Part shown: in pieces, positions 2,904-6,447 of the stretch
Layout of the letters: each line of letters starts with the position of its first letter
Numbering within the stretch: position 1 is the stretch's first letter
DNA from: a virus
Taxonomy: Duplodnaviria > Heunggongvirae > Uroviricota > Caudoviricetes
IMG/VR virus record: IMGVR_UViG_2579778894_000010
Direction: 5' to 3' (one strand)
DNA length: 6,498 nt
Made by a program: the position numbers and the translations under genes
Notes under the pieces: model-generated
What the model was told of the DNA's origin: nothing
Databases searched by the model: none
The model's input: the letters and a program-made list of their open reading frames with translations, nothing else

Positions 2904-3242
2904 CTATTTCCCTGAATTTACGACGAAACTGTTCGAGCGGGCTGAAGCACTCATGCTCATAGCCTTCGCGGAGGTAGATAACACGTTGTGTTTCCGGCTC
3001 CCAACGAATGACTCTGACGGGCACTCCGTAGTGATCTTTGAACCAGCGGTTAACTTGTCGCAAAGGACTGTCTCCTTCTGCCGGTTGAAATCACCCACAG
3101 CCCACTCTGCAAAGCTGTGGGTTACAATTTCCCTGTCACCTGGTACATTTACTGCATAGCAATACTCCACCTTCGCTTTTCCACCCGGTACAGGAAGCGC
3201 AATCAGTTGCGAGCGACGGTAGTGTGTTGTTAAACTGTTCAT
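2904..3242 (-). CDS. hypothetical protein (112 aa)
   Basis: ATG 3242..3240 overlaps the upstream TGA as ATGA; ends 10 nt before the initiator start. No recognisable motif; C-terminal third is low complexity. Contains a perfect 8-bp hairpin at 3094-3121. Confidence 0.5.
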
Positions 3243-3802
3243 GCGTTAGTTTCTCCACAGTCACGACACGCCACGGCGCCCGGAGCTGCACACTCGCGGG
3301 CGTCATTACTTTCTGAAATGCAAAAAATTTTGTAGACCAGTGCTGCATGCTCCTGCAGCTTCGAAATTGAGAGGTACAGCTCGTCGTTAATTGCTGTCTT
3401 CTCATGCGGTTCCACTACACCGTCTTCAATTGCTGAACGAATCTGTTTTGAATAACTGCCGATCTGTTCAATGACTTCCAGCAGGCGCTGGTTAATATCG
3501 GCGTTGTCCACATCCTCGACGTCAGGAAGAGACACAAAGACGCCATTTGCAGACTGCGCCACTGCGTCAGCAATGAAGTGAGTTCCACCAGCACGTTGCA
3601 AAATCATTGCCCATCCCAGCGGGAAAATCTGATCGCCATCGGCACGAAGGCGGTTAAATAATGCGTTCTCTGTTACATCCAGCCAGTCAGCTGCTTCAGC
3701 GTAACCACCCGGCAACTTTGCGATAGTTTTTCTGACAGCTTTCACGTACCACTCAGGCTGTTTTTCTACTTTCCAGTGATGCTTACCCACGGTTAGCCTC
3801 AT
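3239..3802 (-). CDS. CII-like/YdaT-like phage regulatory protein (tentative)
   Basis: Occupies the cII position directly after cro. Central segment ([41 protein letters not shown]) looks like a CII-type HTH; acidic C-terminal part. Start uncertain: ATG 3802 has a weak SD, in-frame GTG 3790 has GAGG at a 6-nt spacer, and the track ORF starts at 3904 overlapping cro. Confidence 0.55.
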
Positions 3803-3827
3803 CGTTCTGTGGTTTCTGTTAATCGAT

Positions 3828-4028
3828 TTATCCATTAGATTTTTCATAAAGCTCAGGTTTAAATGGCAACCGTCCGCAAGTTCTATATGCAGCTTCTGCT
3901 GCACGTCCTTTTGGAATTAACTGGCCCGGACGGTTTCGCCACTGATAAACGGCTTCAGTTGTTATGCCGAAAAAAGCAGCAACTTTCTCAATACTGCCGA
4001 AGTAGCTTTCGATATCGTCAGTTGTCAT
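3828..4028 (-). CDS. cro: Cro-type repressor (P22 Cro-like)
   Basis: 66 aa, divergent from the cI-like gene. HTH segment FGSIEKVAAFFGITTEAVYQWRN resembles P22 Cro as I recall it. Strong SD GGAGGG 5-10 nt upstream of ATG 4028. Confidence 0.8.
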   Translation of the reverse strand: MTTDDIESYFGSIEKVAAFFGITTEAVYQWRNRPGQLIPKGRAAEAAYRTCGRLPFKPELYEKSNG

Positions 4029-4125
4029 ACGCCCTCCAAACTAAGTTTTGTTAGATGCTAATTACAAATCTATCTTTGGTCAATAAAAACTAAGATTACT
4101 TAGCGATTAAAGAAATGGTGCTCCT
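4029..4125. promoter_or_regulatory. divergent immunity promoter/operator region (oR-like; pR toward cro, pRM toward cI)
   Basis: Two 14-bp dyad sites of form CTAA-N6-TTAG: 4041-4054 (CTAAGTTTTGTTAG) and 4090-4103 (CTAAGATTACTTAG). Minus-strand candidate pR: -35 TTGACC, 17-nt spacer, -10 TAGCAT, placed so the 4041-4054 site overlaps the transcript start. Confidence 0.6.
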
Positions 4126-4752
4126 ATGGAAACGGTTGGTCAGCGTATAAAAGCTCTGAGAAGAGTTACCAGAACGTCCCAGAAAGAATTGGGTAAATTT
4201 TGTGGAGTAAGCGACGTTGCTGTGGGGTACTGGGAGAAAGACATCAATACCCCTGGCGGGGAGGCACTTTCGAAATTAGCGAAGTTCTTCAATACGTCAA
4301 TAGATTACATTCTTTACGGTGCTGAGTTTGAAGGCAAACTCGTCACAAACATGCGCAGAGTTCCTGTAATATCGTGGGTTCAGGCTGGGCAGTTTACTGA
4401 GTGCAGGGCAGCAGAAGTGTTTAGTGAAGTGGACAAGTGGGTAGATACATCATTAAAGGTTGGTGATAACTCATTTGCATTAGAGGTTAAAGGTGACTCC
4501 ATGACTAACCCTAATGGCCTCCCAACAATACCAGAAGGCGCAACAGTGATTGTAGATCCAGATGCAGAACCTCGTCATGGAAAAATAGTCATCGCTCGAC
4601 TTGATGGAACAAACGAAGCTACAGTAAAAAAATTAGTCATCGATGGCCCTCAAAAGTTTTTAGTGCCATTAAATCCTCGGTATCCCAACATCCCTATCAA
4701 TGGTAATTGCCTTATCATTGGTGTAGTCAAAGGAGTTCAATACGAACTCTAA
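4126..4752 (+). CDS. cI: cI/C2-type prophage repressor (XRE HTH plus S24 LexA-like autopeptidase domain)
   Basis: 208 aa. N-terminal HTH (QKELGKFCGVSDVAVGYWEK); C-terminal S24 signatures: catalytic Ser in GDSM, Lys in EATVKKLV, and a cleavage-site-like AG; overall resembles P22 C2. Confidence 0.9.
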   Translation: METVGQRIKALRRVTRTSQKELGKFCGVSDVAVGYWEKDINTPGGEALSKLAKFFNTSIDYILYGAEFEGKLVTNMRRVPVISWVQAGQFTECRAAEVFSEVDKWVDTSLKVGDNSFALEVKGDSMTNPNGLPTIPEGATVIVDPDAEPRHGKIVIARLDGTNEATVKKLVIDGPQKFLVPLNPRYPNIPINGNCLIIGVVKGVQYEL

Positions 4753-4764
4753 GACCTCTCTTCT

Positions 4765-4797
4765 CTAACTAAGGCACCGAACCAAGAAAAGTTTGGT
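4765..4797 (+). terminator. rho-independent terminator downstream of the cI-like gene
   Basis: Stem CACCGAAC (4765-4772) / GTTTGGTG (4781-4788), 8 bp with one G-U, 8-nt loop, followed by TTTTCTCTT. Confidence 0.55.
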
Positions 4798-4824
4798 GTT
4801 TTCTCTTGTCATGATAACTAAGTT
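4796..4824 (+). promoter_or_regulatory. candidate pL/oL-like element: operator copy overlapping a sigma70-like promoter
   Basis: AACTAAGTTAAGTTAGAT (4806-4823) matches the oR site AACTAAGTTTTGTTAGAT (4039-4056) at 16 of 18 positions. It sits inside -35 TTGTCA (4796-4801), 17-nt spacer, -10 TAGATT (4819-4824) on the plus strand. Confidence 0.4.
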
Positions 4825-4917
4825 AAGTTAGATTTTATATCAAAGATAACGAACAGGCAGGACGCCCACGAAGTAGCCGCCTGGGGCATATGAAGTCCAG
4901 GATGATTCGTTAGCAAC

Positions 4918-4940
4918 AAAAAAGCGCCCTACAGGACGCT
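4918..4940 (-). terminator. rho-independent terminator for the minus-strand orphan gene
   Basis: On the minus strand: AGCGUCC-UGUA-GGGCGCU stem-loop (7 bp, one G-U) followed by U6 (plus-strand A-run 4918-4923), about 40 nt after the stop at 4980. It is strand-specific: the same position is a C-A mismatch in plus-strand RNA. Confidence 0.5.
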
Positions 4941-4979
4941 TAGCTCTTTAACAATCTGGATATCCACAACAGTAGTAAT

Positions 4980-5471
4980 CTACAGATTGCCGTTAAGTTT
5001 TCTGGACAACTCCTCAATGGATGGAGGCGATACGTAATCCGGATTTTTATTCATCAGAAACTTATTTTCACAGTGGAGGCACCTGCTTTTATGAAAAAGC
5101 TCATCTTCGCTAACCGGGAATGGTTGAAGTATCGATACTATCTTTTGTCCAAAACATTTTGGGCAAAGATGCATGGTTATGCTGCCACCGTTCACGATTA
5201 CCTCCTTCGAGTATACAAAAGTACCCGACTCAAGTTGGTTAAGGATATAGCCTTCCGTCTGAGCCTCAAAGTTTTCGAATTCTGCAATTTTAGCTTTGAG
5301 AGAAGCATTTATTTCTTGATAAGAGCCCACCAGTTCAACGAGAGACACGCATTCGCGCTGAATAGACGCAAGCTTTGAGTTCAGCTCACCAATAGCCGCA
5401 TTTACTTCAGCTTGAGTTTTTGCCTCGTTCATTAGTTTTGCAATCTGGGCTGTTTCACGAATAGCCGTCAT
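4980..5471 (-). CDS. orphan coiled-coil / C4 zinc-ribbon protein (about 163 aa); candidate moron
   Basis: Predicted start ATG 5471..5469 (MTAIRETAQIAKLMNEAK...); the track ORF extends to 5759 but the extra N-terminal 96 codons look like non-coding read-through. N-terminal half is heptad-like and Ala/Glu/Lys-rich; C-terminal half has CPKC-x21-CLHC. By eye it is AT-rich and convergent with cI. Alternative GTG start at 5495. Confidence 0.6.
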   Translation of the reverse strand: MTAIRETAQIAKLMNEAKTQAEVNAAIGELNSKLASIQRECVSLVELVGSYQEINASLKAKIAEFENFEAQTEGYILNQLESGTFVYSKEVIVNGGSITMHLCPKCFGQKIVSILQPFPVSEDELFHKSRCLHCENKFLMNKNPDYVSPPSIEELSRKLNGNL

Positions 5472-5509
5472 TGCTGCCGTTAATTCAGCGATCACATTGA
5501 ATACTCTTA

Positions 5510-5555
5510 TTGTTGTTGGGGATATCCAGATTAACCGAATCCTTGTTGTTGGGGA
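5510..5555. repeat. two exact 13-bp direct repeats (TTGTTGTTGGGGA) spaced 33 bp, upstream of the orphan gene
   Basis: Copies at 5510-5522 and 5543-5555, lying 40-85 bp upstream of the predicted start at 5471. Confidence 0.6.
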
Positions 5556-5782
5556 ATAACCAGGTCCACCTCGCCTGATGTGGCTAAAAGCAGGCACATA
5601 ACAGCTAAGTATTTTCAACCAGAGAGAATCCTTAGCGTTGTGGTGAATGCGGCTCAGCGCACGCGGGTTAAGGTTGAGGCTGACAGTCGACCTTCTGTGG
5701 ATACCCACCCGCCTGGTGTGCAACCTTCGCCAGGCACCGGGAGGCACCCGGCACCACAACTTTATGCTGTGTGTAGTCCTGG

Positions 5783-5828
5783 CGGTACCAGTTTGTACCC
5801 TTGCTTCCGGCTGGTACCGTCCTTTTTT
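5783..5828 (+). terminator. terminator-like hairpin followed by a T-run (plus strand)
   Basis: Perfect 9-bp stem CGGTACCAG (5783-5791) / CTGGTACCG (5811-5819), 19-nt loop, then TCC TTTTTT (T-run 5823-5828). Confidence 0.45.
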
Positions 5829-5829
5829 G

Positions 5830-5916
5830 CAAAACAGAGAAGAGCATCACCGGACGACGGGCTCATAACCCAATCCATCCGGGCGGCTGCCACCGCAGGT
5901 GTTCTTCTCTGTTTTG
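5830..5916. repeat. 14-bp perfect inverted repeat enclosing a 59-bp GC-rich segment
   Basis: CAAAACAGAGAAGA (5830-5843) and TCTTCTCTGTTTTG (5903-5916) are exact reverse complements; the enclosed sequence contains further short stems such as CCGGG/CCCGG. Confidence 0.55.
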
Positions 5917-5965
5917 TGGAGAAACCAACCGACCTTGCAGGGTCGATATGATGAGGAGCAGCAAA

Positions 5966-6328
5966 ATGGCTAGCGAACGCAGTACTGATGTGCAGGCATT
6001 TATCGGGGAGCTGGACGGCGGCGTATTTGAAACCAAAATCGGCGCAGTTCTCAGTGAGGTCGCTTCCGGTGTGATGAACACGAAAACCAAAGGGAAGGTC
6101 TCACTCAATCTGGAAATCGAACCGTTTGATGAGAACCGTGTGAAAATCAAACACAAACTCTCATATGTTCGCCCAACTAACCGCGGGAAAATTTCCGAAG
6201 AAGACACCACCGAAACGCCGATGTATGTCAATCGCGGTGGTCGCCTGACTATTCTGCAGGAAGACCAGGGACAATTACTGACTCTTGCCGGTGAACCTGA
6301 CGGAAAACTCCGCGCAGCAGGTCGTTAA
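5966..6328 (+). CDS. hypothetical protein (120 aa) in the first-leftward-gene (N) position
   Basis: ATG 5966 preceded by SD GAGGAG (5953-5958) at a 7-nt spacer; the track ORF start at 5801 is an upstream extension through GC-rich non-coding sequence. No Arg-rich N-like motif and no family recognised. Confidence 0.65.
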   Translation: MASERSTDVQAFIGELDGGVFETKIGAVLSEVASGVMNTKTKGKVSLNLEIEPFDENRVKIKHKLSYVRPTNRGKISEEDTTETPMYVNRGGRLTILQEDQGQLLTLAGEPDGKLRAAGR

Positions 6329-6393
6329 TATCGTTCGTAATAAACTGATTATTTATCTCATCACTGAATATCTTTATATAGTGAGGACTTATT

Positions 6394-6447
6394 ATGTCTC
6401 AGAACTTAGGGAAGGTGCGAATAAGCGGGGAAATACTTCTCGGCTGA
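6394..6447 (+). CDS. possible 17-codon small ORF (MSQNLGKVRISGEILLG)
   Basis: SD GAGGA (6383-6387) 6 nt before ATG 6394; followed by a 6-bp stem TCGGCT (6440-6445) / AGCCGA (6475-6480) and TTTTTT (6481-6486). Very short, so speculative. Confidence 0.2.
   Translation: MSQNLGKVRISGEILLG

Follow-up and report, generated by a model that had tools for sequence, protein, structure and literature searches.

We analysed a 6,498-nucleotide stretch of DNA from a virus of the Caudoviricetes (IMG/VR record IMGVR_UViG_2579778894_000010), here called the window and numbered from its first letter, for the operators of the cI-type repressor that it encodes. The window represents the early region of an Escherichia coli prophage that is lambdoid and CPS-53/SfV-like; its positions 3800-5000 are 100% identical to NZ_CP024815, and 514 of 5,426 complete E. 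coli genomes carry at least 80% of that segment. The repressor gene lies on the plus strand (4126-4752) and encodes 208 amino acids with Pfam matches to HTH_3 (1.3e-9) and Peptidase_S24 (1.8e-27). Divergent from it, 97 bp from the cI ATG, is a cro-like open reading frame (ORF) of 66 amino acids on the minus strand (3828-4028; Pfam P22_Cro, E 4.4e-11; a Cro/CI family regulator in RefSeq). Residues 75-205 of the repressor match the C-terminal domain of lambda cI among the sequences of the PDB (E 5e-28), with VQAG, GDSM and VKKL aligned with the lambda Ala-Gly cleavage site, Ser149 and Lys192, while residues 3-65 match the N-terminal domain of P22 C2 (1adr, 2r1j; phmmer E 4.5e-11). Judged by these matches, the protein is a natural chimera of a P22-type DNA-reading head and a lambda-type cooperativity tail.

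Three stretches of the window, and no more, match the 14-bp pattern CTAANNNNNNTTAG (CTAA-N6-TTAG), as a previous sequence-only reading of this DNA had reported. Only 0.07 occurrences are expected, none of 200 dinucleotide-preserving shuffles reaches three, and the same three sites are the sole matches in 25.2 kb comprising the identical prophage of E. coli CREC-629 and its host flank. OR1 (CTAAGTTTTGTTAG, 4041-4054) lies directly downstream of the -10 element of a candidate rightward early promoter, pR, and over its predicted start; OR3 (CTAAGATTACTTAG, 4090-4103) is upstream of the -35 of pR, leaves 23 bp to the cI ATG and should overlap the promoter for repressor maintenance, pRM. Both are where the sequence-only reading had put them. 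The third exact dyad, OL1 (CTAAGTTAAGTTAG, 4818-4831), lies in the spacer of a candidate leftward early promoter, pL, and overlaps its -10. It had been placed at 4806-4823, 10 bp too far to the left: the 18-mer AACTAAGTTNNGTTAGAT, found at 4039-4056 and 4816-4833 with the claimed identity at 16 of 18 positions, puts the dyad at 4818-4831, so that an end coordinate of 4823 cuts through the site, and 4806 is the first base of the -35 hexamer. The sigma70-like promoter described around this copy is likewise real as a consensus match but lies at 4806-4834 rather than 4796-4824.

Conservation of these sites was evaluated in relatives drawn from a scan of one genome per species, in which loci with a cI 64-90% identical to that of the window were set against a further group at 32-46% identity. 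The 22 loci compared are the genome loci with a cI at 64-90% identity (a range given for 20 genome loci), together with the window and two phages, LLS and mEp460_4F5; besides Escherichia, the relatives come from nine genera (Enterobacter, Kosakonia, Kluyvera, Serratia, Rahnella, Yersinia, Rouxiella, Providencia and Proteus). The distance between OR1 and OR3 is a constant 49 bp in all 22 loci, and each of the two sites is exact in 20 of them, with one mismatch in the remainder. OR3 carries the central signature GAT..(A/G)C in all genera, whereas OR1 and OL1 carry GTT instead. The sequence-only reading had named absence of the downstream copy from close relatives as a finding that would refute it; the exact dyad is present in 17 of the 22 loci, the window included, 40-113 bp past the cI stop (Escherichia, Enterobacter, Kosakonia, Kluyvera, Serratia, Rahnella, Yersinia, Providencia and Proteus). 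The majority of these copies fall within the spacer and -10 of a conserved TTGACC/17/TAGATT promoter, and the 14-mer CTAAGTTAAGTTAG itself is identical in 12 other loci from six genera. From the comparison we propose aaCTAAG-N4-nTTAGat as a putative extended consensus. As a separate observation, two metagenome-assembled genomes, L019 (uncultured Serratia) and L028 (uncultured Gammaproteobacteria), have a second exact pair of dyads, 49 bp apart, about 440-570 bp upstream of cI and well upstream of the normal rightward operator region, oR, and have no recognisable OL1 downstream of cI, which suggests a duplicated or relocated operator region.

The promoters themselves were located by a consensus scan. 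Candidate pR runs on the minus strand at 4055-4083 (-35 TTGACC at 4083-4078, 17-bp spacer, -10 TAGCAT at 4060-4055), with a predicted start near 4048, and candidate pL on the plus strand at 4806-4834 (-35 TTGTCA at 4806-4811, 17-bp spacer, -10 TAGATT at 4829-4834), with a predicted start near 4841. The scan returned three hits against 4.1 in shuffled sequence, and since there is no excess the scan by itself proves nothing; its hits take their weight from conservation. At pR, alignment of the 22 loci shows conservation of both GGTCAA and the -10. Between cI and pL, a plus-strand hairpin followed by a U-tract (4775-4802; arms CACCGAAC/GUUUGGUG, stem 4775-4798, then UUUUCUCUU) is a plausible cI terminator. 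The stem folds at -13.4 kcal/mol (z -2.96), and a similar hairpin is found at the same place in most relatives; a simple terminator scan did not list the hairpin at 4775-4798.

The arrangement of two sites at oR and one at the leftward operator region, oL, as proposed by the sequence-only reading, stands for the three exact dyads and is incomplete, as the relatives point to a tripartite oR and a probably bipartite oL. The candidate for OR2 is a degenerate dyad with two mismatches (CAAATCTATCTTTG, 4065-4078) that falls in the spacer of pR, at distances of 24 bp to OR1 and 25 bp to OR3. At the homologous position two Rahnella loci (L013 and L026) have a perfect dyad, CTAATCTTTATTAG, midway between OR1 and OR3, and mEp460_4F5 has TCAATCTATCTTAG. 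The candidate for OL2 is a weak site, also with two mismatches (CCAAGAAAAGTTTG, 4782-4795), that lies 36 bp from OL1 just upstream of the pL -35 and shares sequence with the cI terminator hairpin, whose loop and 3' arm it overlaps. It appears with a single mismatch (CTAAG-N4-AGTTTG) in mEp460_4F5, LLS and nine other loci, 35-36 bp from OL1, and two loci that have no terminator hairpin (Yersinia L016 and Providencia L020) have a perfect dyad 34 bp upstream of the promoter-embedded copy. The comparison thus indicates that oR is probably tripartite, with centres 24 and 25 bp apart, the middle site being weak and placed within the spacer of pR, an arrangement that suggests cooperative filling through the lambda-like C-terminal domain. 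The distance of about 35 bp between OL2 and OL1 would correspond to the oR spacing plus one helical turn. If pRM were arranged like pL with OL1, TAGCGA at 4101-4106 could serve as the pRM -10, which would place OR2 near -41.5 as in lambda, an assignment that we do not claim. The pR -35 also lies within a near-palindrome (TTGGTCAA, 4076-4083), and the plus strand therefore reads TTGGTC/TGGTCA where a pRM -35 would be needed; the two promoters may have -35 elements that overlap back to back.

The dyad follows the recognition helix of the repressor. Loci that bear the dyad share the helix 2-3 sequence CGVSDVAVGYWEKD, with only A/S/T or D/G variants, and the dyad is found wherever helix 3 is GVSDVAVGYWEKD or a near variant of it. 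Eight loci checked from the group with a cI at 40-46% identity have instead the helix GVSHVAISQWEK or a similar one, close to GVSNVAISQWERS of P22, and in about 5.6 kb they have no CTAA-N6-TTAG. We regard this co-variation of dyad and helix 3 as the best computational evidence that the repressor would read the dyad. The N-terminal domain of P22 C2 is the closest solved homologue of the DNA-binding domain, and the half-site xTAAG with non-contacted central bases resembles the P22 consensus core, TTAAG-N4-CTTAA. Nevertheless, helix 3 reads SNVAISQWERS in P22 and SDVAVGYWEKD here, with differences at positions that we take to be base-contacting in P22, and the half-sites are TTAA and CTAA, respectively. 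Because helix 3 differs and loci with a P22-like helix do not have the dyad, the repressor appears to work like P22 C2 with a separate specificity. In geometry the sites resemble those of phage 434, whose operators (ACAA-N6-TTGT) are 14 bp long, with 4-bp half-sites and six variable central bases; CTAA-N6-TTAG has the same geometry, and its central bases could tune affinity. The half-site sequence differs from that of 434, however, and no 434 chain is among the PDB sequence matches of the repressor.

The limits of homology with heteroimmune phages provide a further line of evidence. A blastn comparison with PhiR49_1, which encodes a different, 224-residue cI, gives 96.6% identity up to position 3814, 99.7% from position 4848 and no match in between, and the matches to SfV, SfII, SfIV, ST64B and other heteroimmune phages all start at 4848. 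These breaks delimit a cassette of 1,033 bp (3815-4847) that contains cro, oR, cI, the cI terminator and oL/pL and has no homology to heteroimmune relatives; all of the dyads therefore lie inside one cassette that is exchanged as a unit. Homology resumes about 7 nt past the predicted pL start, and a boundary at 4848 would be the expected signature of an immunity region bounded by pL. Phages of the SfV/SfII/SfIV/ST64B/PhiR49 type share the gene order, near-identical flanks and the same succession of cI, terminator, pL and a leader RNA described below, but have the 224-residue repressor and GTAC-type dyads. In SfV the order is cI, terminator and a TTGACA promoter with its own GTAC-type dyad, followed by the common downstream sequence.

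Taken together, these observations make it highly probable, in our judgement, that the window carries an immunity cassette with a lambda-style switch in which a dimer of cI reads CTAA-N6-TTAG operators at pR and pL. The locus has a helix-turn-helix and S24 repressor, a divergent cro, oR dyads at pR, an oL at pL and joint exchange of operators and repressor. The claim that one repressor controls both early promoters gains support from the site statistics, conservation across genera, co-variation with the recognition helix and the module boundaries. In lambda, oR1-3 and oL1-3 accompany pR, pRM and pL, with 17-bp operators spaced at about 24 bp between centres and with oL and oR 2.3 kb apart. The present locus resembles that layout in its divergent cro and cI, in three intergenic operators at centres of about 24 bp, in a second cluster at pL beyond cI and in a repressor C-terminal domain homologous to that of lambda cI. 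It differs in having 14-bp CTAA-N6-TTAG sites and a DNA-binding domain that is not lambda-like, in placing oL about 0.78 kb from oR with only two oL sites evident, and in gene content: rexAB is missing between cI and pL, and pL is followed not by N but by a structured RNA and a non-coding leader.

Binding, cooperativity, looping, the identity of pRM and the site preferences of cI and Cro are all features that we infer. In the proposed mechanism, the 208-residue cI would recognise the 14-bp dyad as a dimer, and Cro would presumably bind the same sites. In the lysogen, repressor at OR1/OR2 and OL1/OL2 would block access of RNA polymerase to pR and pL. The weak sites would be filled cooperatively through the lambda-like C-terminal domain, and looping between oL and oR over about 0.78 kb would be possible. 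RecA-stimulated cleavage at the conserved Ala-Gly would relieve repression, and transcription from pL would then proceed rightward in window coordinates through a 67-nt leader RNA, antisense over an orphan gene, through a 400-nt leader and on into yfdP and the genes to xis and int.

Downstream of pL, the window contains what looks like a hotspot for moron or accessory genes just inside the pL transcript (4912-5565). Two segments of the window, 4848-4911 and 5566-6409, are found in SfV and mEp460_4F5 as well, with other genes in between (orf33 in SfV, a 122-residue ORF in mEp460_4F5). LLS and the IMG/VR contig L177 have none: in LLS, homology to the window from 5566 onward begins within about 20 nt of pL, and in L177 the leader RNA directly adjoins the homologous sequence. 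In the window this variable slot is occupied by a minus-strand orphan gene of 171 amino acids (4980-5495), assigned to PHROG 1244, a family without functional annotation, and by its own terminator on the same strand (4922-4941); PADLOC gave no hit for the gene and Pfam only a weak match of the coiled-coil type. As the cargo differs or is missing between shared flanks, the orphan gene is cargo inserted in the pL unit and convergent with pL. The placement of pL upstream of the orphan gene, another point of the sequence-only reading, is borne out by LLS and L177, in which no orphan gene is present and pL or the leader RNA abuts the leader of yfdP.

That leader is non-coding (5566-5965, plus strand) and is conserved in SfV, LLS and mEp460_4F5. 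Within it, 5607-5830 gives a full-length plus-strand match to the Rfam family STnc100, a family recently connected with PasD, at 40.3 bits (E 2.8e-6), below the gathering score of 47, and is probably a divergent relative of STnc100 rather than a curated member. The segment closes with a strong intrinsic terminator on the same strand (5781-5822 plus U6; -20.5 kcal/mol, z -3.5), about 140 nt before yfdP and in the way of transcription from pL, and the 5' leader of yfdP contains a very stable 95-nt hairpin with internal branches (5826-5920, plus strand; -56.6 kcal/mol and z -4.6 for a 143-nt fold) whose sequence is conserved in LLS, SfV and mEp460_4F5. The first early-left gene is yfdP (5966-6328, plus strand; PHROG 204), as annotated by RefSeq in the identical prophage, where the plus strand past cI continues with yfdP, yfdQ, yfdR and so on to xis (excisionase) and int (integrase).

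The leader RNA that opens the pL transcript is 67 nt long (4847-4913, plus strand), with an outer helix (4849-4853/4906-4910), a hairpin (4880-4884/4897-4901) and invariant loops. A degenerate pattern recovered variants of it from at least 120 IMG/VR contigs, with at least 112 distinct variants including those of other loci, and more than 100 heteroimmune lambdoid phages and prophages of Enterobacterales carry it at the start of the predicted pL transcript. The closing helix takes several forms (CGAAC/GUUCG-like, GUCAUC/GAUGAC and CCACC/GGUGG), and the loop of an internal hairpin is conserved as GGCAUAYGAA. Among the variants listed, 10 of 14 pairs show double changes, with 319 compensatory cells against 111 ± 12 in shuffles; standard pairs fill 90% of cells in the helices, against 15-44% when partners are slid, and RNAalifold recovers both helices. 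The element always lies 12-25 nt past the -10 of a repressor-controlled leftward promoter. Among the matches listed, 95 of 109 distinct upstream contexts have a TTGAC-type -35 at 31-63 nt (mostly 40-53) before the closing helix, and these contexts contain 84 different promoter spacers, many with obvious dyads; with a TTGAC-type promoter this regularly upstream, the element marks the 5' ends of pL transcripts across immunity types.

Several observations weigh against the proposed switch. The strong terminator at 5781-5822 stands between pL and yfdP, and an operon driven by pL would therefore need read-through. In five of the 22 loci (Rouxiella and allied loci, and Serratia L012), OL1 cannot be recognised in the 140 bp past the cI stop, and the sequence downstream of cI is unrelated there. 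Dyads with two mismatches are at chance level in the window on pattern alone (24 against 23.6 expected), and OR2 and OL2 are therefore candidates, not findings, for which position and the relatives speak. The consensus scan of the plus strand gave no pRM promoter for cI. Finally, searches of the literature turned up neither binding nor transcript data for this repressor; the operator strings occurred in none of the papers searched in full text, and searches on regulation in mEp460, SfV and ST64B yielded no operator data for this immunity type.

The terminator raises the alternative that the downstream site controls a repressor-sensitive promoter that mainly makes a short non-coding RNA, either the 67-nt leader ending at the hairpin at 4922-4941 or an STnc100/PasD-like small RNA (sRNA) ending at 5781-5822, with yfdP to int served by another promoter. 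A structured RNA does begin about 7 nt past the predicted start, a hairpin and then a strong intrinsic terminator follow on the plus strand before yfdP, and relatives of STnc100/PasD have been described as prophage sRNAs (the preprint on Pas sRNAs concerns STnc100/PasD and not the leader RNA). Yet the promoter scan finds no promoter-like site on the plus strand anywhere in 4835-5965, including 5830-5965, and the early-left genes are all co-oriented with pL. Moreover, the hairpin at 4922-4941 is followed by a U-tract only when read on the minus strand, and its plus-strand fold is weak (-7.5 kcal/mol, z -1.5). In SfV and mEp460_4F5 a plus-strand ORF follows directly on the leader RNA. On this evidence we consider a promoter devoted mainly to a short RNA improbable.

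The imperfect -35 of the window (TTGTCA), together with the lack of any excess of hits in the promoter scan, would fit a purely auxiliary role for the copy at 4818-4831, either as an anchor for looping or as a remnant of recombination at the edge of the cassette, with a fortuitous overlap with a promoter-like sequence. We think this very unlikely: across genera, conservation of the dyad goes together with that of the -35, the 17-bp spacing and TAGATT, most relatives have the better TTGACC, and heteroimmune phages have a promoter with a dyad of their own at the same place. It is harder still to credit that the dyads are chance palindromes of AT-rich DNA, or the sites of another regulator such as a host factor or the CII-like YmfL (Phage_CP76; 3239-3904, minus strand). 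Such a view can appeal to the AT-richness of the regions and to a literature search that found no binding data, but three copies arise in none of the 200 shuffles, the dyad disappears exactly when the recognition helix of the repressor changes, and all copies are inside the exchanged cassette whereas ymfL is mostly outside it.

For the leader RNA, a cis-acting role on the early-left transcript, in antitermination, stability or processing, is the obvious guess. It may represent an undescribed class of cis-acting early-transcript element, and in its most interesting version it would be a protein-independent processive antiterminator, analogous but not homologous to put; this we regard as a tentative and rather doubtful proposal. 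Its likeness to the put elements of HK022 and HK639 lies in being an RNA of about 70 nt with several helices right after pL in a lambdoid phage that has no N, and short strings are shared (ACGAAC, CAGGAUGA); the helix layout differs, however, with a closing helix around two hairpins in the leader RNA. Homology to put was evaluated with a covariance model run with filters off on the pL and pR regions of HK022 (L206, L207) and HK639 (L208); putL of HK022 was read from the genome, with numbering checked against PMC9378689, and the putL-like RNA of HK639 is annotated at 6188-6313. The leader RNA was rejected as a put homologue, as the matches reached no more than 9 bits (best E 0.35) and missed the put regions, while the window scores 88 bits. 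The same model finds the leader RNA as a single copy, with none in the part of the pR operon that lies within the window. LLS does not have the leader RNA yet keeps the terminator before yfdP, which argues against an essential role as antiterminator. If the antiterminator proposal were true, pL transcripts would pass the intrinsic terminators before yfdP to int, and pL would mark where a second, independently evolved system of RNA antitermination begins to act.

The closest phage relatives by CI, LLS and mEp460_4F5, belong to the same immunity type and conserve all three exact dyads and pL; LLS differs in having neither leader RNA nor orphan gene and mEp460_4F5 in its cargo gene. LLS was described in 2025 (Genome Res), in the one paper found to discuss this repressor, with CI and Cro closest to those of the unstudied mEp460_4F5 (PMC12315714). 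The identity to P22 C2 was given as only 47%, mostly in the C-terminal domain, and the specificity of the repressor was called "unknown and likely novel" (PMC12315714). For SfII, SfIV and SfV, no homologues of N, cII or cIII were reported (PMC3851460). We take the system to be an ordinary switch of the lambda type, with an operator specificity that had not been assigned before. Since it is conceptually a textbook lambda-style switch, its operators will not surprise a specialist, and the less expected item is the structured, conserved RNA with which the pL transcript begins. The immunity type is nonetheless common, being carried by about 1 in 10 complete E. coli genomes with relatives in at least nine other genera, and the analysis provides a testable operator consensus, a map of five sites and positions for pR and pL, enough to design probes for electrophoretic mobility-shift assays, reporter fusions or an orthogonal pair of repressor and operator.

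An Rfam search of the whole window (E up to 1) returned nothing at oR, oL or the leader RNA; besides the sub-threshold STnc100 match it gave only a hit to mir-5880, which we rejected as spurious and caused by repeats elsewhere in the window. These are about five tandem 15-bp repeats (CAGATTTTGACGGGT-like) with related copies at 2445-2596, inside an O-like replication gene on the minus strand (1953-2894), and they are probably origin iterons.

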